A DNA stretch of 64,000 nt from Gemmatimonadota bacterium. Lineage in GTDB: Bacteria > Gemmatimonadota > Gemmatimonadetes > Palauibacterales > KS3-K002. The notes under the pieces were generated by a model. The model was not told where the DNA came from, made no database searches, and worked only from the letters and a program-made list of their open reading frames with translations. Both the position numbers and the translations under genes were made by a program. The DNA lies in assembly GCA_020344375.1 (NCBI GenBank), contig CP070823.1, positions 976,617 to 1,040,616 of the forward strand, in the 5' to 3' direction. The number at the start of each line of letters is the position of its first letter. The stretch's first letter is position 1. Below, piece by piece: positions 2,965 through 62,280 of the stretch.

Positions 2965-4896
<1,932 letters not shown>

Positions 4897-35525: not shown

Positions 35526-37370
35526 CTATTGCTGTGCCCTGCGATAGGCCCGCAAGCCCCGCTCCAGCGAATCCACCTTCACGTCCGGAGCCCCCGCCGC
35601 CGCTGCCGAGTCCAGCGCCGCCCAGGCTGCCGCAGTGTCGCTGGCCGCGACCTGTAACTCCGCCAACTCGAGCCAGTCTTCCCAGGTCGCCGCCGTGCCC
35701 CCCAGGCGTATACGCGAAAGCTGGGCGCGGGCCGCTCGTGCGAACTCACCCTGGTTGGCGTAGGCGTCCGCCTCCAGGCCGTAAAAGACAGCGCGTTCCC
35801 CCACCGCGTCCCGACCCCGCGCCAGCACTCGCAGCGCGCCCTCGTTGTCCCCCAGTCGGAGTCGGATGACGGCCAGCAAGCTGTGGTGGTCGGCATAATT
35901 GGGACCGATCTCCACGGCGCGGGCCGCCATTGCCTCCGCCTCCACAAGCTCACCATGATCCTTCAATAGCACGGCGAAGGCCGAGAGGTAGGCGGGGCTG
36001 TATGGCCATACCTCGAGCGACCTTCGAAACCATTCCCGGGCGCCTACCCAGTCTCCACGACCGAGCTGACGGTAGCCGAGCCACCAGAGGACGCGTGACG
36101 ACTCCGGATGTTGGCGCTGCAGCTCGGTGAAGACCGTTTCTGAATCCTGCCACACAGGGTTCCTTCGAACGGTCACCACCGAGAAGCCGATGACCCAAAC
36201 GGCAAGGCCGAGCGCCACCCAGCGACGCTGCGCGCGCCGGGCGCGCACAAGCAGCAGGGCGCCGATAACCGAGACGGCCAGCGAAGGCAAGTAGAGTGTG
36301 CGCTCCGCCAACACGATCTCCGCCGCGATGATCAGGTTCGACACCGGCAGCAACGTCACGGCAGCCCATCCGACGGCCATGCTGAACTCCGGCGCCCGCC
36401 GGTACAGAACCAGGGCGAGGATCACCGTCGCTAAGACCAGAGCAAAGCCCATCGCACCCAGCAGGGTAAGCTGGCTTGCCGGCAAGATGACCGCAGGGGA
36501 GTAGTCAGCCGACAGTTCGGCAGGAAACAGCAACAGCTCGTAGTAGCGTGGCCAGACGCGCGCCATCGTGAAAAGGCGGGTCGAGAAGCCGGCGTCAGGT
36601 GCGAAGGTGCCCTTTGCGAGACTCGAGACCGGTTCACCCAGTACCGCCCAGCGGAGCACGAGATACGCGAGAAGCACGGTGGCCAGGCTGGCGAACAGAG
36701 GTAGCCGCGTCCGCAGATAGGCTTTGCCGTCACCGATACGCCCGCTGGCGGCGAGCGGGAGATCCAGCAGCAGCAACAAGGCGGGAAGAACAACACCGAC
36801 TTCCTTGGAGAGCACAGCAAGCGCATAGCTGGCGCTGATGATGACCAGCGCCACCCACGAGAGGCGACCGCGCCGAGCCGCGTCCACGTAGGCCAGGCAC
36901 GCCAGTAGCACGAAGGCGGCTGCAAGAAGCTCCGCTCGCCCCACGACGTTGGCCACGGCTTCCGTGTGGACCGGGTGCACCGCGAACACGACGCCACCCG
37001 CGAGAGCGGCCCACCAGGGAAAGAACCGCAACAGCAGCACGGCGAGCAGGGCTGTGACGGCCGCGTGCAGCAAGAGGTTTGTCAGGTGAAAGCCGAAAGG
37101 CCTGCCACCCCAGGCGCTCCAGTCCAGGGCGAAGCTGAGCATCGTCAGCGGCCGGTACAGACCGCTCCCAAAGCGCGCGGGCCAGTACTCGGCCGTCAGC
37201 AGCTCGGGGATTCGACCGAGTCCGTGCACGAGATCACGGCTCACTACAACGGAAACGTCATCATAGGCGAAGCCGTTGGCGAGCGAGTTCGCGTAGACCA
37301 GGACAGACAACAGCGCCACGCCGCCGGCCACGATGATCCGCAGGCGTCTGCGATCCGTCACAGCGTGCAT
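35526..37370 (-). CDS. TMTC-like GT-C membrane glycosyltransferase homolog with C-terminal TPR repeats
   Basis: 614 aa. The N-terminal polytopic domain carries ANGFAYDD...LYRPLTMLSFALDW...FHLTNLLLH, the pattern of TMTC/DUF1736-type protein O-mannosyltransferases. The C-terminal 200 aa are TPR-like. Confidence 0.7.
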   Translation of the reverse strand: MHAVTDRRRLRIIVAGGVALLSVLVYANSLANGFAYDDVSVVVSRDLVHGLGRIPELLTAEYWPARFGSGLYRPLTMLSFALDWSAWGGRPFGFHLTNLLLHAAVTALLAVLLLRFFPWWAALAGGVVFAVHPVHTEAVANVVGRAELLAAAFVLLACLAYVDAARRGRLSWVALVIISASYALAVLSKEVGVVLPALLLLLDLPLAASGRIGDGKAYLRTRLPLFASLATVLLAYLVLRWAVLGEPVSSLAKGTFAPDAGFSTRLFTMARVWPRYYELLLFPAELSADYSPAVILPASQLTLLGAMGFALVLATVILALVLYRRAPEFSMAVGWAAVTLLPVSNLIIAAEIVLAERTLYLPSLAVSVIGALLLVRARRAQRRWVALGLAVWVIGFSVVTVRRNPVWQDSETVFTELQRQHPESSRVLWWLGYRQLGRGDWVGAREWFRRSLEVWPYSPAYLSAFAVLLKDHGELVEAEAMAARAVEIGPNYADHHSLLAVIRLRLGDNEGALRVLARGRDAVGERAVFYGLEADAYANQGEFARAARAQLSRIRLGGTAATWEDWLELAELQVAASDTAAAWAALDSAAAAGAPDVKVDSLERGLRAYRRAQQ

Positions 37371-37381
37371 CGCCTCACCGC

Positions 37382-39031
37382 CTAGTTCGCCCCGCCTCTC
37401 GGCAGCACACCCCCTGACGTGGCTTCTCCAACTCGTCGCTCGCGCTCCAGTGCATCCAGATCTGCCCTGAAGATGAGAGCTCCCGCAGAGGTGACGTAGA
37501 TCAGCTCGAGGCTTCCCGGGAACCGTGCGATCAGCGCATCGATTGGAGCTGCTGCCATTGGGATGTCCCGACGCACTGCGAGGTACTGCACACCCATGTC
37601 GTGCAACAACTCCGCAAGATGCTCGACCGCCGGCGTGCCCCTACGGTACCAGACATGGACCGGCTGGTAGTTGTTGGGGACGGCGTGCCGGCCGGCATGC
37701 AGGGCGATCAGCGGATCGAACTCATAGGCGACGACAGCCCGCTGATCAGTGTTCTCACGCACCCAAGCGATCACCTCAGCGCCCACGGCCGACTTCTGTA
37801 GCTCCGCGCCGTCCCAAACGCGACGGCTGACCGCTCGCAGCTCGCTGTACGCCAGGTTCGCGAACACCACCAGCCCGACACCGACGATAGCATACCGTAC
37901 CAGGGAGCCCCGCGCCCGCGCCGGGGCCCCGCGCCCAAAGCCAACTGCGACTCGTTGGGCGAGCCCGAGGGTGCCTACCGCTGCCAGCGCCAGCAGCAGC
38001 GGGACCAGGATGAAGACGAAGCGGAAAGGCGGGAAGGACCACACGGATGTCAGGGCAAGATACGCCCAGGGGTACACAGCCGTCGCGGGCGCGAGTCGGA
38101 AGATGCGGACGGATCCCAACAGGGCGAGCGCGATGAACAGCATTCCCACCAACGAGGCGGCCAGCGGCCCGAACTGCGGGCTCAGCTTCGTGCCCAGGGT
38201 CTGGAGAATCGCCCCCACGTTGGTGGCGAAAATATCGAAAGCCGCCCACGGCGAGTCTTTGATGTTGGCCAAGTAGAGTTGAACGTAAGAGCCGTAACGC
38301 GGTACCAGGACGTCCGGGATGACCCTTGCGTTCACCAGTGTGAACAACAGCCACGGCACCAGGAGGACGGCTGCGCCCAGCGCGGCTATCAGCGCCGGCC
38401 GGCGCCCGCAGCGCGACCACAGCCCGATCGTCACGGCCGCGAACAGCACGATTCCCACCGCGCGGGTCAGCACCACCAAGCCAACGAGGACGCCGGCGAT
38501 CAGAAGCCTTCGTACGGAGGGACGCACCGATACCGAGTCGGCAGTCCACAAAGCCGCGAAGAGGAGGGCGAGATAGAGCGGCTCTGAGAGTACGCTGGCC
38601 GTCACCAGCATCATCGAGCCGGACGCGAAACCGACAATCGCCAATGCAGCCGCCAGGACAATTGGCAGGATGCGCAGATCGGACAGCAAGAAGACGAAGA
38701 GCCCAGCAGCCAGCCCAATGTGGACGCCGTTGGCCAGCTTCATTCCGAAGAGAGCCGCCTCTGGCGAACTCGCGAGCACCCAAAAGGGCACGAGGCTGAG
38801 TGGATAGACCGGTGGATACTTGATCGCGGGCAGACTGGTCGGCAAGAAGGTCAGCCGGTAGCCCTCGCCCTCGGCCAAAGCTCTTGCCAGGAGCGCGTAA
38901 ATGCCGTCGTCGTAATTCACCCCGACGAGAGCCGCGTTCTGGGCCCACACGCCGAGAACGGCGATGACGGCACCCACAGCCGCCGCCACGGCGAACCTGA
39001 CAGTCCGCTCCGATAGCCGTACCCTGCTCAT
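37382..39031 (-). CDS. Polytopic membrane protein, GT-C-fold glycosyltransferase-like
   Basis: 549 aa with more than 10 predicted TM segments. Acidic first-loop motif VNYDDGIY. 4-nt overlap with the upstream gene. Confidence 0.55.
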   Translation of the reverse strand: MSRVRLSERTVRFAVAAAVGAVIAVLGVWAQNAALVGVNYDDGIYALLARALAEGEGYRLTFLPTSLPAIKYPPVYPLSLVPFWVLASSPEAALFGMKLANGVHIGLAAGLFVFLLSDLRILPIVLAAALAIVGFASGSMMLVTASVLSEPLYLALLFAALWTADSVSVRPSVRRLLIAGVLVGLVVLTRAVGIVLFAAVTIGLWSRCGRRPALIAALGAAVLLVPWLLFTLVNARVIPDVLVPRYGSYVQLYLANIKDSPWAAFDIFATNVGAILQTLGTKLSPQFGPLAASLVGMLFIALALLGSVRIFRLAPATAVYPWAYLALTSVWSFPPFRFVFILVPLLLALAAVGTLGLAQRVAVGFGRGAPARARGSLVRYAIVGVGLVVFANLAYSELRAVSRRVWDGAELQKSAVGAEVIAWVRENTDQRAVVAYEFDPLIALHAGRHAVPNNYQPVHVWYRRGTPAVEHLAELLHDMGVQYLAVRRDIPMAAAPIDALIARFPGSLELIYVTSAGALIFRADLDALERERRVGEATSGGVLPRGGAN

Positions 39032-41118
39032 CCTTCGTCTTCAGCGTTGGGCGCACCCGATCCCCGCGGCACGGGAGACCTCACCGCTCCGTACTCAATG
39101 CGCCGGAGTACAGGAGGCGCTCCGGCAGCTGCCGAGAGAGGAGCGTAAACGTAGTACTGACAATCCGGATAGCGCGCCATCAATCGGCGGTTGCGGACGG
39201 GCCCGACAGCCCGCGCGTAAACGATCCCTCCTCGCAACCACGGATCGTTTCGCCAGACAAGCGTTCCGTACAGGGTGAAGCCGGTCCCGTCCCATACGGT
39301 CTCTTGATAGCAACAGTCCGCGATCGCGCTGGCCGTATCCACGCGAACCGTCGGATCTGGCAGCAATCCCTGTACTACGGGCAGCTGCATGTCCCGCCAT
39401 GTTCGCAGTCGTATGCGCAAGAGGCGCTGCGCCTCAGCCGAATCCCGGCCCGCAGCAACAAGGGAGTCGGTCTCGTCGAGCGCGCGCTGCAGACGGCAAC
39501 CGTCGACCACACGGTAAGTCCGCTCAGCCTCAGAAGCCGAGACCCCCCAGCCCCACATGCGGGCCACCAACCGGTTGCCCCATCCCACCTTGACGAACAC
39601 GAGCGCCTCACTCATTCCCAGACGCTGCGCCTCGACCTCGGGGTGCAACTTCATGCCTGGCATCCGCCCCGCTACAACGCCCGCGCTCCGCGGCAGGTTC
39701 AAGGCGACGCCGGCCGCGAGGCCAGCCAAGAGCGTGAGCCGGAACGCGCTCCGCCAGCGGCCCACGCGCGCGTCCAGCCCGGCGATACCGCCCACCGTGA
39801 GTAGCAGTGCCGGGATCAGCGAAGGATAAAGGAACCGGGGACCGAGGTAGTTGTCCCGGTGCCAGTAGAAGAAGTAGGCCACAGGAGCAGCAACCAGCAG
39901 CGCGGCCAGCAAGCCGCTGGTCGATCGTACGCGGCGGTCTGCGGCTGCAAGGGCCAGCGCGGCAAACAGAAAGATGAGCGACGGAAACGGCCAACCGAAC
40001 AGAAACACGTTCAGTCTCTGCAGATCGAGGGCCGTGTTGGCAAACGACTTGACCGGTGTGAAGGGCTCGCCCCAAGGATCGCTGTGAAAACCCAGTCCGT
40101 GACCCGGCCCCCAGAGCAAGGTGTACCCGAAGCGCAGCGGATGGCCGGTCGTGAGATCGTTGTAGATGAACAGCACCGCCACGCTGATCAGGCACGCACC
40201 ACCGGCTATGAATGCGGCTCGCCAACCCCGGCGCACCAGTATCCAAAGGCCCAAAGCCCCGGCCCACGCCGCGGACTCCAGCGGCCGTATCGTGGCCGCA
40301 GCGCCCAGCGCCAGGCCAAGCGTCACCGGCCAGCCAACACCCCCGGCGCCGTCCACGCGCAGGGCCGCGTACATAGCCAGCCCCAGGAAGAAGCCTGTCG
40401 TCACGTGGTTCATGTAGCTGGCGCTCATGAACAGCACGAACGGCGAGAACAGATACAACAGCGCTGCGAGTTTGGCACTCCCTTCCCCCAGCAGCCGACG
40501 CGCGATGGCGTAGACCAGCACAAGGGTGCCCGCTGAGAACAGCGGGTTCACTATCCAGGGGGCGCCGACGAGCAAACCCAACGTCAGCAGCGCAGGATGT
40601 CCCGGCGGATACTGAGAGAACCAGCGACCGTTGTGCTCAACGAGATGACTGGCGCCAAAGAACTCCCTCTCGTGAGGTGCAGGAGCCGTCAAGCCGCCCT
40701 TCCCGATGATGCGTGCCTGGAACAGCTGCGCGATCGAGTCGACGAGATGAGGGTTATGTGAGAAGAGTACACCGGAGAGCACCATCGTCACGCCGGCGAG
40801 GAGCAAGGCCAAGCCGAGCACAAAGACTCGACTCGGCAGATCGGCTATCTGGCAGCGAGATCTCTCGAGAAACGCATCCACGGTCGCGCCCCGGACCAGC
40901 GCCACCAGCACAGCTACTGGCACGGCGATAGCCAGCCACCAAGCCCAGTCCCGCGCGGTATCCGCATAGGCCGTCACCTCATCGGCCCGCGCCGTACCCA
41001 ACCAGGCCGCCCACGGCAGGAAGACGATGAGGATCAGAAAGACGGTCAGCGCTGCGAAGCCTCGCGCTCCCCAATCCCGAAACGGGCTATCGACCTCGTC
41101 AGCGGCTGGTCCGGGCAT
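39028..41118 (-). CDS. Polytopic membrane protein, ArnT/PMT_2-like GT-C glycosyltransferase with C-terminal soluble domain
   Basis: 696 aa. The multi-TM N-terminal 500 aa resemble the ArnT/PMT family layout. A 190-aa soluble C-terminal domain contains Cys residues. Confidence 0.55.
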   Translation of the reverse strand: MPGPAADEVDSPFRDWGARGFAALTVFLILIVFLPWAAWLGTARADEVTAYADTARDWAWWLAIAVPVAVLVALVRGATVDAFLERSRCQIADLPSRVFVLGLALLLAGVTMVLSGVLFSHNPHLVDSIAQLFQARIIGKGGLTAPAPHEREFFGASHLVEHNGRWFSQYPPGHPALLTLGLLVGAPWIVNPLFSAGTLVLVYAIARRLLGEGSAKLAALLYLFSPFVLFMSASYMNHVTTGFFLGLAMYAALRVDGAGGVGWPVTLGLALGAAATIRPLESAAWAGALGLWILVRRGWRAAFIAGGACLISVAVLFIYNDLTTGHPLRFGYTLLWGPGHGLGFHSDPWGEPFTPVKSFANTALDLQRLNVFLFGWPFPSLIFLFAALALAAADRRVRSTSGLLAALLVAAPVAYFFYWHRDNYLGPRFLYPSLIPALLLTVGGIAGLDARVGRWRSAFRLTLLAGLAAGVALNLPRSAGVVAGRMPGMKLHPEVEAQRLGMSEALVFVKVGWGNRLVARMWGWGVSASEAERTYRVVDGCRLQRALDETDSLVAAGRDSAEAQRLLRIRLRTWRDMQLPVVQGLLPDPTVRVDTASAIADCCYQETVWDGTGFTLYGTLVWRNDPWLRGGIVYARAVGPVRNRRLMARYPDCQYYVYAPLSAAAGAPPVLRRIEYGAVRSPVPRGSGAPNAEDEG

Positions 41119-41255
41119 TGCCTATTCTCACTGGACCCCTATCTTGTGGATTCCGTCCCCGCCGCTCATCCGCTCTGCCGAAACCTCACGGTGCCAACGC
41201 AGTGCGCGAACAGGTGCCTCACGAGAGCTTGCCTCACGATCGAGCGGAGGTTCCC

Positions 41256-43322
41256 GTGCCCAGAGTCGACCGCACAAGATTCGGCCGTCTCTTCCGCTGG
41301 TTGGCCGGGACCGTTCTGCTTCTCGGGGTGACGCTCGCGCACATACATGTGGTCTCACAGCCTGCCTCTTACCACGGGCCACTGCTCATAGCGGACCATC
41401 TCTTTGCCATCGCCCTCGCCGCCGCGATCGTGGTCGTCTCTGCAAGCCTCGGGCGCTTCACGCTCAGTCGCCTGCAGCTAGAGTTCGAGCATCCTCTGGA
41501 ATCGCTGTTGTTCTCTATCGTCAGCGGGGCCGCGATCGTGTCGATCGGCATCTTGCTTATCGGGTTCTTCTCGTTGCTGAAGACACCGATCATCGTACTC
41601 CTGCTGCTACTCGCGGGCCTCGTCGCCCGCAGTGAACTCACCGACTTGCCCCGCCTCTGCTCGGAAAGCATCGCGTACCTGAAAAAGCACAGAGGCCACA
41701 TCGCATTGGGCGTCGCGGGCAGCTTGGTCCTCGGGCTCGTGGCCGCGGTCCTGCTCGTCCAGGCCGTTGCCCCACCGACCGACTGGGACAGCTTGATGTA
41801 CCATCTCCACATACCGCGGCAGTTTCTCGACGCGGGGCGCATTCTGGTTCCCGAGGACAACCTCCATGTCGCCTTCGTGGGGCTCGTGCACATGCTGTAC
41901 GTGCCGGCTCTCGCGCTGCAAAGCCCCGCTGCGGCAGCGGTTCTCAGCGTCCTCTTCGCGCTGCTCCTCGGTCTCGCGACGTTCTCGCTGGCCGCCAGGT
42001 TCCTCAACGATGCGACGGCGAGCTTCAGTCTCTCGATCCTCTGGGCCACCACGAGCATCCTGCTGGTGGCAATAACCCCGAGGGTTGACATCGCACTTGC
42101 GTTGTACCTCCTTCTCGCGCACTACGCACTGCTGATCGCGCTCTCCGATACCGGGCGCACAGCCCATCTCTATCTCGCGGCCGTGCTCCTAGGGTTCGCC
42201 GTCGGGATCAAGTACCACGCGCTCGCTTACGCGCTGGCCCTGGCGCCGCTCATCGCCTGGGTTGCGCAAAGGAGGGGCAACACGTTGACGGGCTCGCTGC
42301 GGCCGCTCGCTCTCTTCGGGCTGCTTCTTTCGGCGGCTGCCGCGCCCTGGCTGATCAAGAATGGGCTCCTCCTCAAAGCACCCCTGTATCCCTTCTTCAG
42401 CGAAACGCTGCTCGAACCCTGGCTCGCTTCCCTGTACGGAAGCTCGACTGTCCCATCGACCGTTGACCCGGAGATCTTCAGGGCGCTCGCGGAGGCCCGT
42501 TTCCGATTCAACCTCGTCGATCTCTTCACGGCCCCCGGCCGATTGACGGTGGAGCAAGAAGGCCGTTACTACCACATGAATTTCCTATTCCTGCTCCTCC
42601 CGCTGTGGGTACTGTATCTGCGCAACAGACGGCTCAACTGGCTGCTGATTCCGCCCGCCACCTATCTGCTGCTGATCGTGGCTCCGTTCCCGCTGACGAA
42701 CCTCCGCTACCTGATACCGGCCGTTGCGCCGCTGACCGTCGTCACCGCCTACGTCATCGTTCAGCTGTCCCATCGTCTACTGTCAGCAGGAGCGGCCAGG
42801 CTCCTCGTCATCTCTCTCGCCGCTCTGGCGCTCTATCCCTCCGCGAGGGCGATGCATTTCTGGCTAGGCAAGAGCAAAGTGCTCGGTCACTTCGCCGGCG
42901 TGACGTCGGAGCGAGAGTACTTGGATACCGGCTACTCTTACTACAGCCAGCTGACCGAGGCGGTGAACCAGCGGGTCCCCGGTGACGCCAAGGTCCTCCT
43001 GCTCTTTGAGGCGCGCGGCTACTACTTCGAGCCGGCAGTGATCCAGGACAACATGCTGACGAACTGGCCACTTCTCGCTCCCAAGGCCATCGGTAGTGAA
43101 GACTGTCTGAGCTCGACGGGAATCACCCACATCCTCGTCAGCGACCTTGCCGTACGCTACTACGTGCGCCGCGGAACCGACCCGCAGGTTCTCGGTTCGG
43201 ATCTCTTCCCCGTCTTTGCCACACAATGCCTCGCGCCGTTCTATCAGGGGCGTGGCTTCAGGATTCTGGAACTGCGGGCCGGACCGGAGGTTGAGGCCCT
43301 GCCTTCCCCGACGCGCGGATGA
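41256..43322 (+). CDS. Polytopic membrane protein, GT-C-like; paralog of 60081-62150
   Basis: GTG at 41256 sits 5 nt after GGAGG; 688 aa. Colinear over its whole length with the 689-aa product of 60081-62150, roughly half the residues identical by eye. Shared blocks include APPxDWDxLxYHL, VGLVHMLY, LLVAITPR and NLRYLIPA. Confidence 0.6.
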   Translation: MPRVDRTRFGRLFRWLAGTVLLLGVTLAHIHVVSQPASYHGPLLIADHLFAIALAAAIVVVSASLGRFTLSRLQLEFEHPLESLLFSIVSGAAIVSIGILLIGFFSLLKTPIIVLLLLLAGLVARSELTDLPRLCSESIAYLKKHRGHIALGVAGSLVLGLVAAVLLVQAVAPPTDWDSLMYHLHIPRQFLDAGRILVPEDNLHVAFVGLVHMLYVPALALQSPAAAAVLSVLFALLLGLATFSLAARFLNDATASFSLSILWATTSILLVAITPRVDIALALYLLLAHYALLIALSDTGRTAHLYLAAVLLGFAVGIKYHALAYALALAPLIAWVAQRRGNTLTGSLRPLALFGLLLSAAAAPWLIKNGLLLKAPLYPFFSETLLEPWLASLYGSSTVPSTVDPEIFRALAEARFRFNLVDLFTAPGRLTVEQEGRYYHMNFLFLLLPLWVLYLRNRRLNWLLIPPATYLLLIVAPFPLTNLRYLIPAVAPLTVVTAYVIVQLSHRLLSAGAARLLVISLAALALYPSARAMHFWLGKSKVLGHFAGVTSEREYLDTGYSYYSQLTEAVNQRVPGDAKVLLLFEARGYYFEPAVIQDNMLTNWPLLAPKAIGSEDCLSSTGITHILVSDLAVRYYVRRGTDPQVLGSDLFPVFATQCLAPFYQGRGFRILELRAGPEVEALPSPTRG

Positions 43323-43392
43323 TCAGGATCACGAGACTCCGAATCGTCGTCACGCAACTCCGCCTTCTCGCGCGCCAAGCGGGCCCGCAGCT

Positions 43393-46501: not shown

Positions 46502-46672
46502 GCTGTTAATCGTCCGTCCTCCTAGACCGCAAGACCTCGGTTCCAGTCGCGAGCACCCGGACCGCCAAAGAATCGAAGCCAGTGAGGGTGAAACGGGGGA
46601 GGATTCGTCGAAAGGCACTCCTTCCGGCCGCCGGCATGCTGCGACCCAGACTCCGCAACGATAATCTCGACT

Positions 46673-46687
46673 CTTGCAAAATGCAAG
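46673..46687. promoter_or_regulatory. Perfect 6-3-6 inverted repeat CTTGCA-AAA-TGCAAG in the pilS / glycosylation-operon divergent region
   Basis: Sits in a locally AT-richer stretch between divergent genes. It is 13/15 identical to the repeat upstream of pilA. Confidence 0.4.
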
Positions 46688-46821
46688 ACCCCGGGGGCCG
46701 GGCACCCTCGCGCCGCCCGGGACCTCCGCCCATTGAGTCCGACCCCGACTCGCTGCATCTTTGGGGGGGTGAGCTCCCCTGCCCTACGGCTCCCTCCCAT
46801 CACCGCGTACCTCGACCTGAG

Positions 46822-50094: not shown

Positions 50095-50106
50095 GCGGGG
50101 GCTGGA

Positions 50107-52004: not shown

Positions 52005-52038
52005 GCACGATCCTTTCGGACCCTGAGGTTGATCGGCC

Positions 52039-53172: not shown

Positions 53173-53174
53173 CC

Positions 53175-53969: not shown

Positions 53970-53970
53970 G

Positions 53971-54975
53971 ATGAATCCGCTGGCACAACACGAGAAGCTC
54001 GCGCCCGGCGTCGGGGTCTGGGGCGTGGGGAACCACGCGCAGCGTAGCACGCTGCCGGCGCTGTCCGAATGCCCGGCCGTACGGCTGGTCGGTCTGACCA
54101 CACGAAGCGAGAAGGTGCGCGAGGAGCAGGCGCGAAAGTGGAACTGCAAGGCCTGGAAGACTCCGCGGGACATGCTTCAGGACCCGGAGGTCGAAGTCGT
54201 GTACCTCGCCACTCCCGTAGGCCTGCATCACGAGCACGGGCTACTCGCGTTACAGGCCGGTCGGCACCTGTGGTGTGAGAAATCGCTGACCGCCTCGCTC
54301 GACACGTCTCAGGAACTGGTCGAGGTTTCCACGGAGCTGGACGTCGCTCTCTGCGAGGCTTTCATGTACCAGCATCACCCACAGTTCCGGCAGGTTCTTC
54401 AATGGATCGTGGACGGGCAGATTGGCCAGATCCGCAGCATCAGTAGCCGCTTCGGGTTCCCCCACCTGGGGCCGGACGACATACGTTACGTTCGCGAGCT
54501 GGGCGGCGGCGCCCTGCTGGATGTCGGCTGCTATCCCCTCTCGGCGGCGCTCGCGATCGCCGGCGAGGAGCCGGACGGCGTTCATGCCGTGCTCGGCCGG
54601 GATGAAGGCTACGCGGTGGACACCGCTGGCTCGGCGCTGTTGCGATTCCCGTCCGGGATCAGCGCCCTCCTGGAATGGGGCTTCGGCCGTGCCTATCGAA
54701 ACGAATTGGAGGTTTGGGGAGAGGACGGAACGATCATCGCCGAGCGTGCGTTTTCGAAACCGCCCGACCTCAGTCCCAGAACCGTCTTGAGGCGGCAAGA
54801 TGGCACTGTTGTAGATAGCGATATACCGCCAGCCAACCAATTCGTGCACATGTTCGCGACATTCGCCGGCGTTCTGGAGGCTGACGCGGCCCGCGAAGAA
54901 CATCGGAGGCGCGCACTGCGACAGGCACGTACGGTTGCGGCTGTTCTCGAGTCTGCACATTTGACTGGTATCTAG
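53971..54975 (+). CDS. Gfo/Idh/MocA-family NAD(P)-dependent oxidoreductase (candidate NDP-hexose 3-ketoreductase)
   Basis: 334 aa with an N-terminal Rossmann motif [13 protein letters not shown] and CEKSL. The start follows the dehydratase-like gene's stop after a single intervening base. Confidence 0.7.
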
Positions 54976-55025
54976 CCCACAACGGGCTTGATACATTCGA
55001 TGCCAACTGCGATCTTAGGGTGCGT

Positions 55026-55922
55026 ATGCGGAAGGGAATTATCTTGGCGGGCGGAGCGGGCAGCAGGCTGTTCCCACTGACCATCGTCACCAGCAAGCAA
55101 CTCCTCCCGGTCTACGACAAGCCGATGGTCTACTACCCCCTGTCGGCGCTCATGCTGGCGGGGATTCGGGAGATCTTGGTCATAGCGACACCGGAGGCGC
55201 TTCCCTCCTATCAGCAGCTTCTCGCTGACGGCTCGCACCTGGGACTCACGATCTCGTACGCCGAACAGGCGCGGCCTGAGGGCCTCGCCCACGCGTTCAT
55301 CATCGGTCGAGAGTTCGTCGGTCGAGACCACGTCGCGCTCGTTCTCGGGGACAACGTCTTCTACGGCGGCGGTCTGATGGAGCCGCTCAGAAACGCCTCG
55401 GCGGACTTCAGGCCGGGAGCCACGATCTTCGCGTACTACGTCTCGGACCCGGAACGCTACGGGGTGGTGGAGTTCGACAACGCCGGCCAGCCAGTCGGTA
55501 TCGAGGAGAAGCCCCAGAAACCCAAGTCGCACTTCGCCGTCACCGGCCTCTACTTCTACGACAACCGGGTGCTCGATATCGCCGCCGGCTTGAAGCCGTC
55601 GCCACGTGGCGAGCTCGAGATCACGGATGTCAACCTCATTTATCTCAAAGAGGGAACCCTGCGTGTCACGTTCCTCAGCCGCGGCATAGCCTGGCTCGAC
55701 ACGGGAACGCCGGACGCTCTGCTGCAGGCCGCCAACTTCGTCGCCGCGCTCGAGCAGCGCCAGGGACTCAAGATCGGCGCGGTGGAAGAGGTCGCCTATC
55801 GCATGGGTTATATCGACGCCGCACAGGTTGAGCGCTTGGCGGATTCGCTGAAAGGAACCGATTACGCGAAGTACCTGCTGGGAATCCTACACGATCGCCG
55901 CCCCTTCGAGCCTGTGCGCTAG
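55026..55922 (+). CDS. rmlA: Glucose-1-phosphate thymidylyltransferase RmlA
   Basis: [19 protein letters not shown]...[18 protein letters not shown], canonical. Confidence 0.93.
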
Positions 55923-55995
55923 CCGGTCCAGGCGTTCTTCGCAGCGCCTGCCAGGGCGTCGGGTTCGGCGAGCACGGAGCTTTCCAGGGTAGCCG

Positions 55996-57114
55996 ATGAC
56001 GGAAGCCGAGTCATTCACACCCTCGTGCCTGCTGGTCAGCGGTGGAGCCGGGTTTATCGGCTCCAACTTCATCCGCTGGGTACTCGAGGAACACCCCGAT
56101 CTGTCCGTGGTGAACCTCGACCTCCTGACCTACGCCGGAAACCTCGAGAGCCTGGAGGACGTCGACGTACGGCACGGCCCGGCGGGAGACGGAAGGTACT
56201 ACTTCGTCCACGGCGACATCCGCGACTTCGAGACCATCGCGCGCCTACTCCGTGGTGAAGCCAGTGAAACCGTCCCCCAGGCGCAAGAAGCCCGCACGCC
56301 CCCACCCATAGACGCCATCATCCACATGGCCGCCGAGTCGCACGTGGACCGCTCAATCATGGGGCCAGCGATCTTCGTGGACACGAACGTGAAAGGCACC
56401 TTGACCCTGCTCGAAGCGTGCACAGCAGAGCTGGACCGAAGACCGCGACCTTTCCGCTTCCTGCACGTCGGCACCGACGAAGTATACGGCAGCCTCGACC
56501 TGGACGATCCCGCTTTCACCGAGACGACACGGCTTGCCCCGAACAGCCCGTACTCGGCCAGCAAAGCGGGGGCCGACTTGCTGGTACGGGCCTACGTCGA
56601 AACGTTCGAGCTGCCGGCAATCACCACCCGTTGCTCGAATAACTACGGTCCCTACCAGTTCCCTGAGAAGCTGATCCCGCTCATGATCACACGCGCGCTC
56701 CGCGATGAACCACTGCCCCTCTATGGCGACGGGCTGAACGTTCGGGACTGGCTGCACGTGGAGGATCACGCGAAGGGTCTCTGGACGGTGCTCGCCCACG
56801 GCCGGGTCGGCGAGATCTACAACATCGGCGGCGAGTGTGAGCTCCAGAACATCGAAATCGTCAGGAGCATCCTACGATTGCTCGAGAAGCCCGAGTCGCT
56901 GATCCGCTATGTCGATGATCGCCGGGGACACGACCGACGCTACGCCATGGACATCACGAAGATGCGTAGCGAGTTGAGCTGGCAGCCCGCACATACGCTG
57001 GACAAGGGACTGGCGGAGACGGTCGAGTGGTATCTCTCGCATCAGACGTGGTGGGAGCGCGTCCTCAACGAGGCGTACCTCGCGACCCGCGCCCTCTACC
57101 TGACGGAGGGCTAG
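55996..57114 (+). CDS. rmlB: dTDP-glucose 4,6-dehydratase RmlB
   Basis: GGAGFIGSNF and YSASKAGADLLVRAY (YxxxK). About 25 aa are inserted after the HGDIRD block. Confidence 0.92.
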   Translation: MTEAESFTPSCLLVSGGAGFIGSNFIRWVLEEHPDLSVVNLDLLTYAGNLESLEDVDVRHGPAGDGRYYFVHGDIRDFETIARLLRGEASETVPQAQEARTPPPIDAIIHMAAESHVDRSIMGPAIFVDTNVKGTLTLLEACTAELDRRPRPFRFLHVGTDEVYGSLDLDDPAFTETTRLAPNSPYSASKAGADLLVRAYVETFELPAITTRCSNNYGPYQFPEKLIPLMITRALRDEPLPLYGDGLNVRDWLHVEDHAKGLWTVLAHGRVGEIYNIGGECELQNIEIVRSILRLLEKPESLIRYVDDRRGHDRRYAMDITKMRSELSWQPAHTLDKGLAETVEWYLSHQTWWERVLNEAYLATRALYLTEG

Positions 57115-57138
57115 TGTGCCCATCAGCGAGGTAGAGCG

Positions 57139-58176
57139 GTGAAGATCCTCATCGACATCCTTCACCCGGCTCATGTACACTTCTTCAAGAACTTCTACGC
57201 CGAGATGAAGGGGCGTGGCCACGATCTTCGTATCACTGCCCGTGCTAAGGAGTGCTCGATCGATCTGCTGGAACGCTACGGGCTTCCTTACCGCCTGATC
57301 TCGGAACAGCGGACGGGCACGCTCGGGCTCGCCACCGAGATGCTTCGAAGGACGTACCGTCTCACTCGTGTTATGCGAGAATTCCAGCCGGACGTGATGA
57401 CCGGCATCATGGGACCGAGCATCGCGCTCGCAGGTGCGCTGTACCGGGTCCCCGCGGTCATCTTCTACGACACCGAATTCGCCACTCAGACGAACTGGTT
57501 CGCTTACCCTCTGGCTCACAGCGTGTGCACCCCCGATTGCTACCAGGGGGTGGTCCGCGGCACGCATCGCACCTACGCTGGCTATCACGAACTGGCCTAC
57601 CTCCACCCCAAGCGCTTCAACCCGGATCCGGCAAAGCTGGCCTCGTTCGGGCTGAGCGAGGACGAGCCTTATTCCCTTGTCCGTTTCGTCTTCTTGCAGG
57701 CCGTTCATGACCGCAGCCAGCGTGGCCTCTCCCTGCAGCAGAAGCTGCAGATCGTTGATCTCCTCGAGCGGCACGGTCGTGTTCTGATATCCTCGGAGGG
57801 CCCAATACCCGACGAGCTCGCAGCTCGGCGCGTGCAGGGACCGGTCGAAGACATACACCATTTGCTCGCCTACGCCCAGGTGATCGTGGGAGAGTCAGCC
57901 ACGATGTCTTCGGAGGCGGCCGTACTCGGCGTACTGGCCATCGTCATCGCGACCACCGGCCGCGGCTATACCGATGACCAGGAAGCGCGGTACGGCCTGG
58001 TGCGGCACTTCACAGAGGACGAGTACGACGACGCCGCGCGCACCATCGAGCAGCTGTTTGCGGGTGAATCACCTCGCAGCTTCGGAGCCCAAGCTCGCCT
58101 GCGACTGCTCGACGAGAAGATCGACGTGACCGACTGGATGGTGCGCTACTTCGAGAGCCAGTTCGGAGGAACCTGA
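57139..58176 (+). CDS. DUF354-family protein (GT-B/epimerase-like fold, function unknown)
   Basis: 345 aa with a GTG start. The KILIDILHPAHVHFFKNF N-terminus is characteristic of DUF354. Confidence 0.6.
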   Translation: MKILIDILHPAHVHFFKNFYAEMKGRGHDLRITARAKECSIDLLERYGLPYRLISEQRTGTLGLATEMLRRTYRLTRVMREFQPDVMTGIMGPSIALAGALYRVPAVIFYDTEFATQTNWFAYPLAHSVCTPDCYQGVVRGTHRTYAGYHELAYLHPKRFNPDPAKLASFGLSEDEPYSLVRFVFLQAVHDRSQRGLSLQQKLQIVDLLERHGRVLISSEGPIPDELAARRVQGPVEDIHHLLAYAQVIVGESATMSSEAAVLGVLAIVIATTGRGYTDDQEARYGLVRHFTEDEYDDAARTIEQLFAGESPRSFGAQARLRLLDEKIDVTDWMVRYFESQFGGT

Positions 58177-58182
58177 CCTCCC

Positions 58183-60084
58183 GTGTGCGGGATCACGGGC
58201 ACCTTCAACTTCGGCGACGTGGGGCTGCTCCGCGCGATGACCCAGTCTATCGCGCACCGCGGTCCCGACGGCGAGTACCTGTATGGGGACGGGCCGGTGC
58301 ACCTCGGGAACCGACGCCTGGCGATCCTGGACCCGGAGCATGGGGCGCAGCCCATGTTCAACGAGTCCGGGTCGGTCGCGGTGATCTACAACGGCGAGAT
58401 CTACAACTATCCCGAACTGAGGCAGCACCTTCTCTCCAGCGGCCACACACTCAAGACACGTTGTGATACGGAGCTACTTCCTCACCTCTACGAAGAAGAG
58501 GGGATCGATTTCGTCCAGCGGCTCAATGGGATCTTCGCCTTTGCCTTGTGGGATCGCGACCTGAACAAGCTCTTCCTGGTGCGCGACCCGCTGGGAGTCA
58601 AACCGCTGGTCTTCGCGCAGGTTGGCGACAGACTCGCCTTCGGCTCGGAAGCGAAGGCTGTGCTGGCCAGCCGCCTGGTCGCCGCCGAACTGGACGAGGT
58701 CAGCCTGCACCTGACCATGAACCTGCGCTATATCCCCGGGGAACGAACGCTCTTTCGCGGTATCCGGCGGCTCCCGCCGGGCACTATTCTCGAGGTGGAC
58801 CGGGCCGGCCTGCGCAGCCGCGAGTACGGAACGATCGATTGGAGTCCCCGGACGCGCTCGCTTGGAGACTGGATCGAGGCGATCCGGGCGCATGTCGAGC
58901 AGGCAGTCCACCGCCAGCTCCTCTCAGACGTGCCCCTGGGCGTTTCACTATCCGGTGGCATCGACTCCAGCGGTCTGGTCGCGATGATCCGCAAACGCTA
59001 CTCCGGGCCGCTGAAGACCTTCACGCTCGGGTTCAACGAACCATGGGATGAGAACGAAGATGCCCGCTTCGTCGCCGAGCGATTCGGAACGGAGCACCAC
59101 GAGATCGTTCTGCACGAGCCGGCGATGGGCTACCTGAAAGAGGCGATCTACTTCACTGAAGAGCCCAAGGTAAACTGTCTTCAGCTGTTTCTCCTCCACC
59201 GGTTCGTCAGCGAGCACGTCAAGGTGGCTCTGTCGGGCCTCGGGGGAGACGAACTCTTTGGCGGCTACGACTTCTACACGTACCTCGGTCGTCTGCGCTG
59301 GCTGCGAGAGGTCCTGCCACGAGGGTTCTCGCGCCGCGTGCTGGGGCCAGCTCTCGACCGCTTGGCGCGGATGACGGCACGACTCGACCGACCCTCGCTG
59401 GACCTCTACGTGCGCGGGCTGGAGTGGGTCGGCTGCCTGCACGATGGGGCGCGCCACTACTTGCTTCTACGTAACGCCTGGGACTTCAATCCTGTCCTGC
59501 TTCAGCGAGTCTATACGCGAGATTTTCTCGACCGGCTCGAGGTTCGCTGCCGCGACGGCTTTGACGGCTTCTTCCCAGCCGAACGCGCCGTGGAAAGTGA
59601 GGCCTTACGCGCCGAATTCCGGACCAAGCTGGTCAACGACCTGCTGCATAACGAAGACACGATGTCGATGGCGCACTCCGTTGAATCGAGAGTGCCACTG
59701 CTGGATCTGGAGCTGGTCCGCTTCGCTGCCCATATCCCGGATGAGCTCCGCTTTCGAGGCGGATTGAAATGGCTGCTCAAGAGAGCGTTCAAGGGAATCG
59801 TCCCGGACGAGACGCTGGCGAAGAAGAAGTGGGGCTTCACGGTCGACCCGGTCGAGCAGTACAAGAAGGACCTGCGGGCTATGGCCGCAGAACTGCTGAC
59901 GCCCGACCGACTGCGCCGTACCGGGATCTTCAACCCACGTTTCGTGACCAGCCTTCTCAGCTCGCGCCCACATCCGCGTCTGCGCTGGCACTACTTCATG
60001 CTGTGGCAGATGATCGGGGTGGAACTCTGGCATGAGCTGTTTCTCGAGCATGATCCGGCTGGCGTCGATGGGACCGGGCCATGA
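58183..60084 (+). CDS. Asparagine synthase (glutamine-hydrolysing)-like amidotransferase
   Basis: (M)CGITG with an N-terminal nucleophile Cys2. Carries the SGGIDSS PP-loop; 633 aa. Confidence 0.85.
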   Translation: MCGITGTFNFGDVGLLRAMTQSIAHRGPDGEYLYGDGPVHLGNRRLAILDPEHGAQPMFNESGSVAVIYNGEIYNYPELRQHLLSSGHTLKTRCDTELLPHLYEEEGIDFVQRLNGIFAFALWDRDLNKLFLVRDPLGVKPLVFAQVGDRLAFGSEAKAVLASRLVAAELDEVSLHLTMNLRYIPGERTLFRGIRRLPPGTILEVDRAGLRSREYGTIDWSPRTRSLGDWIEAIRAHVEQAVHRQLLSDVPLGVSLSGGIDSSGLVAMIRKRYSGPLKTFTLGFNEPWDENEDARFVAERFGTEHHEIVLHEPAMGYLKEAIYFTEEPKVNCLQLFLLHRFVSEHVKVALSGLGGDELFGGYDFYTYLGRLRWLREVLPRGFSRRVLGPALDRLARMTARLDRPSLDLYVRGLEWVGCLHDGARHYLLLRNAWDFNPVLLQRVYTRDFLDRLEVRCRDGFDGFFPAERAVESEALRAEFRTKLVNDLLHNEDTMSMAHSVESRVPLLDLELVRFAAHIPDELRFRGGLKWLLKRAFKGIVPDETLAKKKWGFTVDPVEQYKKDLRAMAAELLTPDRLRRTGIFNPRFVTSLLSSRPHPRLRWHYFMLWQMIGVELWHELFLEHDPAGVDGTGP

Positions 60085-62150
60085 AAGAGTCCGCGGCCCG
60101 CCCGAGAAAGACGCTGAAATCCGCCAAGATCTCTCGACACAGACCAATCCTCGGCGGCCTGCTCGCGGCGCCGTCGCTTTGCGCCGTGGTCGCCGCCCAT
60201 CTCTACGTCTACCCCCGCGGCTTGGCCTACGCGGGCCCGCTCCTCATACTCGACCATCTGTTCGATCTGCTGGCCGTGACGGCCCTGATCGCCATAGCCA
60301 TCGCCGTCGGCAACTACGCACTGTCAAAGGTCGGCCTTGATCTTGTACACCCCATCGAGGCCCTTGCCTTCGGCGCCGCCGTTGGTGTTGGCCTCATCTC
60401 GACGTCCTTCCTCGTCCTCGGCTTCCTCTCCGGATTGCACGCACCGATCCTGGCGGCCGCCCTTGGCCTCTGGGCGTTGTTGGCTCGGCGGGAGCTCGGC
60501 GAGCTGCCGCGAATCCTGCGGCAGGCTCGCAGCGAGCTGATCGCAAGCGCTGGCGATCGGGCACTGCTCCTCATCGGTATCCTGGTCGTCGCAGCGGCGA
60601 CGGCCTTCATCCTGATCATGGCCCTTGCACCGCCTGTCGACTGGGACGCCCTCACGTACCACCTACAGGTACCGGCTCATTTTCTAGCGGAGGGCCGCAT
60701 CTATCTGCCGGACGACAACCTGCACACGGCCTACGTCGGGCTCGTCCACATGCTGTATCTGCCTTTGCTGGCGCTGGGCAGTACCTCGGGACCGGCACTC
60801 TTCAGCGCGGTCATGGCCCTACTGCTGGGCCTCACGGCCTTCTCGCTCGCAGCCCGCTTGCTCGACGGCCGAACCGCGAGCCTTGCCCTCGGCCTGGTGT
60901 GGGGAACGACGACCTTGCTGCTGGTAGCGATCACTCCGCGGATCGACGTCACGCTCGCTCTCTATCTTCTACTCGCCCATTACGCTCTGCTGCTCGCCGC
61001 ATCCTCTCCCTCTCAACGCGACTATTTCTACCTGGCAGCGCTTCTACTCGGATTCGCCTTTGCATCCAAGTACCACGCCGTCCCCTACATCGTGGGCCTG
61101 ACGCCCTTGATTCTCTGGCTTTCGGTATCTGGTTGGGAGCGGCGAGCCGCGTCCGCTCGCGCCCTGTCCCTCTTCAGTCTGATCCTCCTCTCAGCCGCGG
61201 TTCCCTGGCTGCTGAAGAACTGGGTTCTCCTCGGCGCGCCGCTCTATCCGCTCCTGGCCGACAACAGGTTAGAGCCGTGGCTCGTGACGTTCTACGGCAC
61301 CGCCACGCTCCCCTCCTCGGTCAGCCCCGAGATCTATCATCTGCTCGATGCCGCCCGATTGCCCTTTAACCTTCCAGCTGCTTTCTTCTCGCCCGGTCGG
61401 TTGACGATCGAATTCGAGGGGGCCTTTCACTACGCCAACCCTGTCCTGCTGCTGCTGCCGCTCTGGCTGTTCTTCCTGCGGAAGAGGACGATCAACTGGT
61501 TGATCATCCCCGCCATCGGGTACCTGCTCGTGCTGATCTTACCTTTCGGGACGACCAACCTCCGTTACCTGATCCCGGCGAGCGTGCCTCTGACGTTGGC
61601 CGCAGTGCACATGCTCGTGCGGACGAGCGAGCGCCATCTGTCAATCGCGATGGGCCGGCTCCTTCTCGTCGCGCTGGCGGCTATTGCCCTAGTGCCGTCG
61701 GCCCGGACCGCGTACGTGTGGCTCCGTCACACCGAGGCGCTCCCCTATCTGATCGGCGCGACCTCAGGCGAAGAGTACATGGCCACGCACCTTGATCCCG
61801 GCGTCCGTACTCTCGTCCCGGTCGTGAGGTTCGTGAATCAGCGCCTGCCCGAGGGCAGTCGCATCTTGATGCTCTATGAGGCCCGGGGCTTCTACTTCCG
61901 AAGGCCGGTGATCGAGGACACCTGGGTCACGAACTGGCCACTGCTCGCCCATCGTCTGCCTCGTGACCGGTGCCTGGAGCAGGCCGGCATCAGCCACTTG
62001 CTCGTGAACTACGGAGCCGTCAGCTACTACCTACGGCGCGGAGTTGATCCCCGGCTGTTCCAGTGGCAGGCTTTCACGGACTTCGCCGACAGGTGCCTGG
62101 GCGAGCCGGTCTTTCAGGACCCGGCCTTCCTCGTCTTCCAGAGCCGCTAG
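60081..62150 (+). CDS. Polytopic membrane protein, GT-C-like; paralog of 41256-43322
   Basis: 689 aa with an ATGA overlap to the AsnB-like gene. See 41256-43322 for the shared blocks. Confidence 0.6.
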   Translation: MKESAARPRKTLKSAKISRHRPILGGLLAAPSLCAVVAAHLYVYPRGLAYAGPLLILDHLFDLLAVTALIAIAIAVGNYALSKVGLDLVHPIEALAFGAAVGVGLISTSFLVLGFLSGLHAPILAAALGLWALLARRELGELPRILRQARSELIASAGDRALLLIGILVVAAATAFILIMALAPPVDWDALTYHLQVPAHFLAEGRIYLPDDNLHTAYVGLVHMLYLPLLALGSTSGPALFSAVMALLLGLTAFSLAARLLDGRTASLALGLVWGTTTLLLVAITPRIDVTLALYLLLAHYALLLAASSPSQRDYFYLAALLLGFAFASKYHAVPYIVGLTPLILWLSVSGWERRAASARALSLFSLILLSAAVPWLLKNWVLLGAPLYPLLADNRLEPWLVTFYGTATLPSSVSPEIYHLLDAARLPFNLPAAFFSPGRLTIEFEGAFHYANPVLLLLPLWLFFLRKRTINWLIIPAIGYLLVLILPFGTTNLRYLIPASVPLTLAAVHMLVRTSERHLSIAMGRLLLVALAAIALVPSARTAYVWLRHTEALPYLIGATSGEEYMATHLDPGVRTLVPVVRFVNQRLPEGSRILMLYEARGFYFRRPVIEDTWVTNWPLLAHRLPRDRCLEQAGISHLLVNYGAVSYYLRRGVDPRLFQWQAFTDFADRCLGEPVFQDPAFLVFQSR

Positions 62151-62252: not shown

Positions 62253-62280
62253 CTCTACAACGCAGGTGTCGGCGCTCAGA

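Follow-up and report, generated by a model that had tools for sequence, protein, structure and literature searches.

To our knowledge, glycosylation of a type IV pilin by a glycosyltransferase of the GT-C fold is known experimentally from one system, TfpW of Pseudomonas. TfpW of P. aeruginosa group IV has been described as a GT-C enzyme modelled on ArnT, with a DDx motif in loop 1, ~11 transmembrane (TM) helices and a periplasmic tetratricopeptide repeat (TPR) domain whose best match is OGT (bioRxiv 10.1101/2020.04.19.049825). Here, a 64,000-nucleotide stretch of contig CP070823.1 (hereafter the window) from a Gemmatimonadota bacterium living in soil or sediment was analyzed, in which genes for five GT-C-type membrane proteins (GTC1 to GTC5), a family 2 glycosyltransferase (GT2) of the polyprenyl-phosphate type and a dTDP-aminodeoxysugar pathway are embedded in a type IV pilus locus. 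On balance, this island probably serves to O-glycosylate the type IV pilin in the periplasm, with sugars that would be donated from polyprenyl monophosphate. A preliminary description of this DNA had proposed the same, and synteny, the GT2, a flippase-like protein and the GT-C motifs all support it; the pilin is probably sugar-coated, given that relatives across the phylum keep the same arrangement.

Open reading frame (ORF) and Pfam scans placed a type IV pilus supercluster in the right-hand two thirds of the window (~64% GC), with the backbone order pilT-pilC...pilS-pilR...pilA-kinase/sigma54 regulator-minor pilins-pilMNOPQ (24152-63991). The ORF map and domain assignments agreed with the preliminary description that pilS and pilR are the sole pilus genes between pilA and pilC, and every ORF position given there was confirmed. 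We take this backbone order to be the same as that of the Myxococcus pil cluster, in which case the glycosylation genes would have been inserted at two sites into a cluster that otherwise resembles that of Myxococcus. The major pilin gene pilA (34907-35284, minus strand; N_methyl 38 bits) encodes 125 residues with the leader MNRKG/F (MNRKG/FTLIELL), and its best NCBIfam match is a Myxococcus-type PilA. Mature PilA has 120 residues, including a C102-C123 pair and 23 Ser/Thr that cluster at 61-66, 74-100 and 110-117; T116 is invariant in an alignment of six pilins, and the sequence singles out no glycosylation site. Upstream of pilA, 64 nt 5' of its ATG, lies a candidate sigma54 -24/-12 element with one mismatch to the consensus (TGGCCCcaagcTTGC, 35348-35362, minus strand), and pilA may have its own sigma54 promoter; consensus matches across the window numbered 59 against 58 expected by chance, so that the element is suggestive by its position alone.

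Directly upstream of pilA lies the gene for GTC1 (35526-37370, minus strand), which combines a GT-C domain of ~11 TM helices (residues 1-405) with a C-terminal TPR domain (residues 407-614) and is proposed here as the pilin O-glycosyltransferase. The AlphaFold 2 model (pLDDT 92.6) has helices that agree with a hydropathy scan, the two loop-1 aspartates (D37 and D38) are invariant in 60 homologues, and the best match of the TPR region is OGT. The Pfam domain TMTC_DUF1736 was matched at 17.2 bits, under its cutoff of 27, and was found in 39 of the 60 family members at E<0.01 (best E-value 7.9e-6). Homologues of GTC1 number in the thousands, and among the best 120 all those with a named source belong to Gemmatimonadota or Longimicrobiales.

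When compared with TfpW, which was possible through the published description of that enzyme, GTC1 is alike in its GT-C domain with ~11 TM helices, its loop-1 DD, its C-terminal TPR domain with OGT as best match and the position of its gene beside and co-oriented with pilA. In both systems a sugar donor on polyprenyl phosphate would be made in the cytoplasm and flipped, although for GTC1 this is predicted from the neighboring genes. The two differ in that tfpW lies downstream of pilA (pilA-tfpW) and GTC1 upstream, and in that TfpW has a Yx6PFx7P proline motif in periplasmic loop 4, which had no match in any of GTC1 to GTC5. The TfpW system further contains DprE1, DprE2 and phosphoribosyl pyrophosphate (PRPP) transferase genes and a GtrA-type flippase, whereas the window has a GT2 synthase with a dTDP-aminodeoxysugar pathway, an MprF-type flippase candidate and four further GT-Cs. 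No domain of the D-arabinofuranose pathway (PRPP transferase, DprE1 or DprE2) was found in the scanned ORFs of the window. With both the proline motif and this pathway missing, GTC1 was not filed as a member of the TfpW family.

The eukaryotic TMTC1-4 and PMT enzymes resemble GTC1 in an 11-TM GT-C domain joined to TPR repeats on the lumenal or periplasmic side, in the motif FAVHPxHTE and, as far as the weak match of GTC1 shows, in a loop of DUF1736 type from TM7 to TM8, and their donor comes from a DPMS-type GT2, as by homology it would in the window. Residues 127-137 of GTC1 read VVFAVHPVHTE, against LLFAVHPIHT in human TMTC3 (PMC7801869). In contrast to the TMTCs, which are eukaryotic and transfer mannose, GTC1 is bacterial, stays below the DUF1736 cutoff, probably uses a sugar other than mannose and has the pilin as its likely acceptor.

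Next to GTC1, GTC2 (37382-39031, minus strand) and GTC3 (39028-41118, minus strand) complete the row of three GT-C genes 5' of pilA that the preliminary description had noted. The genes are there and are of GT-C type, but the proteins are not paralogues of one another, and an origin of GTC1 to GTC3 by tandem duplication was rejected as they had no detectable pairwise similarity. GTC4 (41256-43322, plus strand) and GTC5 (60081-62150, plus strand), the latter encoded by the last gene of the operon described below, had been called a paralogous pair, which their 47% identity bears out; except for this pair, the five proteins fall into families (four in all) without pairwise BLAST similarity. All five are polytopic with at least eight hydrophobic segments each in a hydropathy scan, and in each family the loop that follows the first core helix has acidic residues that do not vary. 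These conserved acidic loop motifs were superposed in every hhalign comparison among the GT-Cs. Together, the profile searches, structure prediction and alignments were consistent with the earlier view of GT-C-type proteins with acidic first-loop motifs.

Searches of PDB chains by single sequence and by profile with GTC1, GTC2 and GTC5 returned TPR or chance matches and no GT-C, and evidence for the fold was therefore taken from structure prediction and profile-profile comparison. GTC2, which had no Pfam or NCBIfam match, was modelled by AlphaFold 2 with a pLDDT of 93.1, helices consistent with the hydropathy scan and a small C-terminal alpha/beta domain. Its model is of GT-C fold, matching STT3, ArnT, DPY19, PglB, AftD, ALG9, Emb and AftB in Foldseek with a probability of 1.0 and TMq values of 0.5-0.6. 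D41 and D42 are invariant in the homologue alignment of this orphan family, which had just 92 members in 5.8 billion proteins, all those with a named source being Gemmatimonadota. The assignment of GTC3 to GTC5 is based on PMT_2 scores and on hhalign links of 87-96% to GTC2, and GTC1 is linked to GTC2 at 88%. GTC3 is of PMT_2 type (26.1 bits, exactly the cutoff) with three additional N-terminal TM helices, matches the LA_3751/3752 family of putative glycosyltransferases in NCBIfam, has an invariant D127 and aligned to GTC2 at 95.7%. GTC4, which is divergent from GTC3, and GTC5 are of PMT_2/DUF8201 type, with PMT_2 scores of 21.6 bits (below cutoff) and 39.1 bits (cutoff 26.1), respectively. 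Their family of 229 members aligned to GTC2 at 87% and carries a D-W-D motif (D187-W-D189 in GTC5), in which D189 is invariant and D187 is present in at least 90% of sequences.

A GT2 gene (46822-47817, plus strand) opens a plus-strand operon of 13 co-directional genes (46822-62150) with intergenic gaps of -14 to +73 nt. The encoded enzyme is of the DPMS/ArnC/GtrB/AglJ type (Glycos_transf_2, 82 bits) with two C-terminal TM helices (residues 232-300). Its best NCBIfam matches, all under their cutoffs, were AglJ, PpgS, a Dol-P-hexose transferase and ArnC, and its matches among solved structures were polyprenyl-phosphate glycosyltransferases only (Pyrococcus DPMS 5mlz, 6e-15, and three ArnC entries), in line with its earlier assignment as a polyprenyl-phosphate synthase. 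From the presence of this DPMS/ArnC-like enzyme in the operon, we infer that the GT-Cs use a sugar donor linked to polyprenyl phosphate. The opening of the operon was described correctly as regards the GT2 in first place and the number of genes; the flippase-like gene, previously placed second, is third, and the second (47804-49099, plus strand) encodes a soluble protein with a predicted (alpha/alpha)6 barrel. This protein had no Pfam or NCBIfam match and belongs to an unannotated family of 2172 cluster representatives, whose profile matched cellobiose 2-epimerase (2.5e-7), GH76 and N-acylglucosamine 2-epimerase (AGE), so that it is possibly a sugar epimerase or isomerase. Because homologues elsewhere are fused to GT2, GT4, AsnB or FrhB (F420-dehydrogenase beta-subunit) domains, the evidence points to an uncharacterised part of this family in glycan biosynthesis.

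The third gene encodes an LPG_synthase_TM protein with homology to MprF's flippase domain (49096-50094, plus strand; PF03706, 72.9 bits; TIGR00374, 42 bits against a cutoff of 43.2), which is proposed as the flippase for the polyprenyl-phosphate sugar; a dedicated small flippase of the GtrA, SMR or MATE type was not found in the window, this protein standing in its place. The LPG_synthase_TM family has been predicted to contain archaeal glycosylation flippases, on the basis of conserved neighborhoods with an AglD-like GT2 and a PMT/STT3-like GT-C (PMC5898192). Three further enzymes of the operon, all on the plus strand, could act on the lipid-linked sugar: a cytoplasmic GT4 of GT-B fold (50107-51327), a GT-B-like DUF354 protein with a weak N-terminal MurG match (57139-58176) and an AsnB-like glutamine amidotransferase (58183-60084). 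DUF354 proteins may be an archaeal-type family.

Between the GT4 and DUF354 genes lie those for a dTDP-sugar pathway. RmlA (55020-55922, plus strand; TIGR01207, 444 bits) and RmlB (55996-57114, plus strand; TIGR01181, 458 bits) both exceeded their curated cutoffs (360.65 and 365.1), and by this homology catalyze the step to dTDP-4-keto-6-deoxyglucose. They are accompanied by a WecE-type dTDP-4-keto-6-deoxyhexose 4-aminotransferase (52039-53172, plus strand; NF008687, 491 bits against a cutoff of 375; DegT, 276 bits) and a weakly WecD-like GNAT N-acetyltransferase (51324-52004, plus strand). The predicted product is a dTDP-4-acetamido-4,6-dideoxyhexose, or its 2,4,6-trideoxy form if two additional enzymes are active. 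One is an EvaA-like NDP-hexose 2,3-dehydratase of 264 residues (53175-53969, plus strand; Hexose_dehydrat, 203 bits), which aligned (3.4e-64) to residues 33-244 of the 471 of EvaA (4j7g), that is, to its N-terminal half; the other is a GFO/IDH/MocA oxidoreductase nearest to the sugar 3-ketoreductase KijD10 (53971-54975, plus strand; 3rbv, 7.3e-46). The aminodeoxysugar pathway read earlier from this region is therefore present with RmlA, RmlB, aminotransferase and acetyltransferase, with the amendment that its 2,3-dehydratase is of half size. Pathways for 2-deoxygenation are typical of antibiotic sugars, which makes the EvaA-like and KijD10-like pair (53175-54975) unusual for an apparent surface-glycan locus. 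The GNAT gene has the lowest GC content of the island (53-55% against ~64% around it, with a minimum at 51200-51800), and a related contig (L009) has a formyltransferase at the same position, which together suggest a recent gene replacement inside the sugar cassette.

The three-component systems (GtrA/GtrB/GtrV, ArnC/ArnEF/ArnT and Citrobacter GT136, PMC11127046) join a synthase of polyprenyl-phosphate sugars to a flippase and to a GT-C that acts outside the cytoplasm, a logic that the island would share, and the ArnB/ArnA/ArnC series is mirrored by the aminotransferase, the N-acyl or formyl transferase and the GT2. Those systems act on O antigen or lipid A with one GT-C and another flippase family, whereas the window has five GT-Cs, additional cytoplasmic GT-B enzymes and, as we read it, a protein acceptor. 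Archaeal loci also bring the same three protein families together (AglD/AglJ-type GT2, MprF-like flippase and PMT/STT3-like GT-C; PMC5898192), but there they feed N-glycans moved by AglB, while the present genes are bacterial and linked to a type IV pilus locus. With PglL and TfpO systems the island shares the O-glycosylated pilin proposed here and, for TfpO, the gene position beside pilA. PglL and TfpO systems differ in their Wzy_C-type enzyme, initiating phosphoglycosyltransferase and Wzx. Among the ORFs of the window scanned with Pfam, which included large ones beyond the island, none had a domain of a phosphoglycosyltransferase, of Wzx, Wzy, Wzz or Wza, or of a Wzy_C ligase, as the preliminary description had also reported for Wzx/Wzy/Wzz, an initiating phosphoglycosyltransferase and a Wza-type gene.

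Related loci (numbered with the prefix L) were gathered through protein look-ups and one metagenome profile scan. GTC1 lies directly 5' of a co-oriented pilA, at 40-81% identity, in CP070722, CP070815, a Longimicrobiales metagenome-assembled genome (MAG) and two JGI contigs. In CP070722 and CP070815 (GTC1 at 52-56%) the gene order is pilS, pilR, a GT-C-like gene with the loop motif GDYLDWDE, GTC3, GTC2, GTC1, pilA, kinase, sigma54 regulator, minor pilins and pilMNOPQ. CP070812 has two copies of the GDYLDWDE family; its cassette, past pilS, consists only of genes for a GTC4/5-like protein, a GT2, a sulfotransferase and a methyltransferase and is followed by pilC-pilT-pilB. Thus, distant Gemmatimonadota also have GT-C genes between pilR and pilA and a cassette with GT-C and GT2 genes between pilS and pilC. 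In the Longimicrobiales MAG, a GTC1 homologue and a PMT_2 protein lie on one side of pilA, with Wzx, AsnB, GT4 and GT2 genes beyond the PMT_2 protein; on the other side are RmlA, RmlC, an RmlB-like epimerase/dehydratase and a YfhO-type protein. The GDYLDWDE family is a further polytopic family (576-607 residues) found between pilR and GTC3 in other Gemmatimonadota (L003 4421-6244, L004 4584-6314 and L008 2934-6438) and absent from the window. Its members in L003, L004 and L008 had no Pfam match, and a Longimicrobiales relative (29-30% identical) matches PMT_2.

Scanning metagenomes with a GTC1 profile yielded 80 loci, and 51 of them were informative in that 1.2 kb or more of sequence follows the gene. 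A co-oriented pilin gene starts within 1.2 kb downstream of the GTC1 homologue in 21 of these 51, and in ~10 more a pilin gene lies behind a second tandem GTC1 copy. On the upstream side, no pilin-like ORF was found within 1.2 kb in any of 50 loci. Compact strings of the form pilS-pilR-GT2-GTC1(x1-4)-pilA(x1-2)-kinase-regulator were present in ~20 metagenome loci. From these strings and the downstream pilin counts, the linkage GT2, TPR-GT-C, pilin is the conserved core. A 338-kb metagenome contig (L007) has a tandem pair of GTC1 homologues with two pilin genes behind it, and four loci (L017, L022, L049 and L051) likewise have two GTC1 copies with two pilin genes. Up to four tandem GTC1-like genes occur in L028, L044, L048 and L052, with one of the four copies on the opposite strand in L048 and L052; in L028, L044 and L048 a pilin gene follows the array.

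Toward pilC, gene content varies strongly between relatives. A scan of reference genomes with GTC5 found two loci only. L001, a Gemmatimonadota MAG, is 91-97% identical to the window in GTC1 to GTC4, pilR and pilS, yet its cassette differs. L001 and L002 retain, with identities of 58-84%, the genes for GTC5, the GT2, the (alpha/alpha)6 protein, DUF354 and the flippase-like protein, DUF354 being kept at 71% in these otherwise differing cassettes, while all dTDP-sugar genes are replaced by methyltransferases, a fused dehydrogenase and another GT4. Such variability of the pilS-pilC cassette is typical of surface-glycan loci under diversifying selection. In L001, a stretch like the first 50 residues of the GT2 (9792-9941, 48% identity) lies just 5' of the GTC5-like gene and may be the scar of a rearrangement that reordered the cassette. 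Pairing of a GT2 with a GTC4/5-like gene recurs in L001, L002, L008 and L010. The last of these is a Binatia contig (JBOHVS010000339.1, 806-4776) that encodes a GTC4/5-like protein together with a GT2 and an LPG_synthase_TM protein; its GT2 is 69% identical to that of the window and the adjacent GT-C 44% to GTC5. Identities as uneven as these suggest that the donor synthase, or else the module as a whole, was transferred horizontally.

Following the gene order and family assignments, the pathway could run as follows. RmlA and RmlB would produce dTDP-4-keto-6-deoxyglucose in the cytoplasm, from which the EvaA-like dehydratase and KijD10-like 3-ketoreductase would remove the 2-hydroxyl, the WecE-like enzyme would aminate C4 and the GNAT would acetylate. 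The DPMS/ArnC-like GT2 would place a sugar onto polyprenyl phosphate, the GT4, DUF354 protein, AsnB-like enzyme and (alpha/alpha)6 protein might extend or modify the lipid-linked sugar, and the MprF-type protein would flip the donor to the periplasmic face. There, GTC1 would grip the pilin by its periplasmic TPR domain and attach the first sugar to Ser/Thr, like TfpW and the TMTC/PMT enzymes, and GTC2 to GTC5 may either extend the glycan or act on additional sites or acceptors. Exchange of the pilS-pilC sugar cassette between strains would then vary the pilus surface, plausibly in response to pilus-specific phages. A more elaborate form, in which a multi-sugar pilin O-glycan is built stepwise in the periplasm without en bloc transfer, by a relay of four to six GT-Cs from at least five families (including the phylum-confined orphan family and a TMTC-like initiator) on polyprenyl-monophosphate donors, appears doubtful at present.

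Several observations weigh against a pilin-directed system. We infer the pilin as acceptor from gene linkage and architecture only. In Foldseek, the top 50 matches of the whole GTC1 model were TPR proteins only, and its membrane fold is supported only indirectly, by the hhalign link, the DUF1736 matches in its family and the FAVHPxHTE motif. About 20 of the 51 informative metagenome loci show no pilin within the sequence at hand, and the Binatia module has no pilus gene within 12 kb, which indicates that GTC4/5, GT2 and flippase are not intrinsically tied to pili. DPMS/ArnC-class GT2s mostly use UDP- or GDP-sugars rather than dTDP-sugars, and polysaccharide loci, too, typically have cytoplasmic GT-B enzymes and an AsnB-like amidotransferase. 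In view of the Binatia module, other acceptors may be served by part of the island, as the preliminary description had allowed. In one alternative, proteins are glycosylated in the periplasm but the major pilin is not the chief acceptor: the system would O-glycosylate proteins in general, or minor pilins, PilY1-like tip proteins, the secretin or other envelope proteins, with its genes in the pilus locus only for co-regulation. The five GT-Cs here come from four families, and relatives have as many as six per locus, which is more than one acceptor seems to need; the TMTCs, themselves TPR-GT-Cs, modify defined sets of secreted proteins. Yet the gene directly after GTC1 homologues is specifically of the major-pilin type, and GTC1 and pilin copy numbers rise together in L007, L017, L022 and L049; we consider this explanation unlikely.

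A non-protein glycoconjugate (lipopolysaccharide, exopolysaccharide or glycolipid) that is functionally coupled to pili would also explain the co-location, as co-regulation. Parallels are the pilus-dependent exopolysaccharide of Myxococcus and the Xap polysaccharide genes beside pilus genes in Geobacter, and classical three-component systems modify O antigens. The GT4, DUF354, AsnB-like and dTDP-aminosugar genes would be at home in a polysaccharide locus, and the Longimicrobiales locus has a Wzx-type Polysacc_synt gene and several GT2s. Against these stand the window, with none of the polymerase, ligase, chain-length regulator, export or initiating genes looked for, the compact pilR-GT2-GTC1-pilA strings, which leave scant room for a polysaccharide pathway, and the TPR domain on a GT-C, a hallmark of the protein-directed TfpW and TMTC; we regard a glycoconjugate of this kind as rather unlikely. 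Both alternatives stay alive for the right-hand operon because of the Binatia contig. That the membrane/TPR proteins are non-catalytic pilus-assembly or scaffold factors of GT-C descent, comparable to the TPR pilotin PilF/Tgl, is highly improbable: some database records call GTC1 homologues PilF or TadD owing to their TPR repeats, and PilF is among the weak TPR matches, but homologues spanning 40-95% identity all keep the catalytic-type acidic residues and many further polar residues in the membrane, and a dedicated donor synthase and flippase are co-encoded.

The remaining pilus genes of the window follow the pattern of the related loci. On the minus strand the order is pilQ, pilO-like, pilN, pilM, minor pilins, a HAMP kinase with a sigma54 response regulator, and pilA. 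The kinase (HAMP/HisKA, 33511-34761) and the sigma54-activator response regulator (32146-33510) form a second two-component pair downstream of pilA (32146-34761, minus strand) that resembles pilS2/pilR2 and is kept beside pilA in all related loci. Both pilR (43393-44760, minus strand) and pilS (44747-46705, minus strand; the actual start is probably farther downstream than 46705) were assigned from their translations and from orthologues in L001, L003, L004, L008 and L009, which are 65-97% identical and carry the Pfam domains 6TM_PilS and Sigma54_activat. At the right-hand end, pilC (62281-63483, minus strand; T2SSF, 230 bits) is followed by the C-terminal part of pilT (63560-63991, minus strand; T2SSE match), which runs off the window edge; they are 93% and 91% identical to the pilC product and the 359-residue PilT of CP070812, respectively. 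An intrinsic-terminator-like hairpin of 14 bp with 11 GC pairs (62224-62256, minus strand) lies between the convergent GTC5 and pilC.

Three ORFs of the window call for separate mention. An 888-residue ORF adjoining pilQ (21409-24075, minus strand) had no Pfam or NCBIfam match. Among the minor pilins, a 472-residue ORF (30179-31597, minus strand) overlaps a GspH-like gene by 164 nt, and its N-terminal part is probably non-coding, given that relatives carry two genes (119 and 289 residues) at this position. In the left 21 kb, which hold housekeeping genes (dnaK, htrA, tig, clpPX, gcvT, hslUV, xerC, trmFO and topA), a 660-residue ORF (2740-4722, minus strand) scored 539 bits to the Pfam family NAD-GH (PF10712). 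It runs antisense to dnaK (2782-4896, plus strand; HSP70, 859 bits), which is the real gene there, and NAD-GH accordingly looks like a shadow-ORF family. A mobile-element origin of the island was also considered and rejected, as no tRNA, integrase or repeat boundary was found at the island and the XerC-like gene at 16.3 kb is part of a housekeeping group, xerC-hslVU.

Literature searches returned no account of several GT-C genes at one pilus locus, in agreement with the preliminary description, which knew of no report of five GT-Cs at such a locus, and none of pilin glycosylation in Gemmatimonadota. The system is not a new principle; it would be a phylum-wide and unusually elaborate version of one known from a single enzyme, and suggests that GT-C pilin glycosylation is the rule across a poorly studied phylum in a far more elaborate form. 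If the periplasmic relay held true, bacteria would have their own version of the ALG/PMT/TMTC logic that eukaryotes follow in the lumen of the endoplasmic reticulum, and this strain would use a 2-deoxy-4-acetamido sugar otherwise typical of antibiotics. The analysis also brings out two families, an orphan one of GT-Cs and an unannotated one of (alpha/alpha)6 proteins connected with the metabolism of lipid-linked sugars, and gives bacterial TMTC-like TPR-GT-Cs a concrete candidate substrate, and with it a tractable bacterial model for TMTC O-glycosyltransferases. Overall, the hypervariable sugar cassette, with conserved pilus genes on either side, suggests that the pilus surface varies from strain to strain, which bears on phage-host interactions in soils and sediments.

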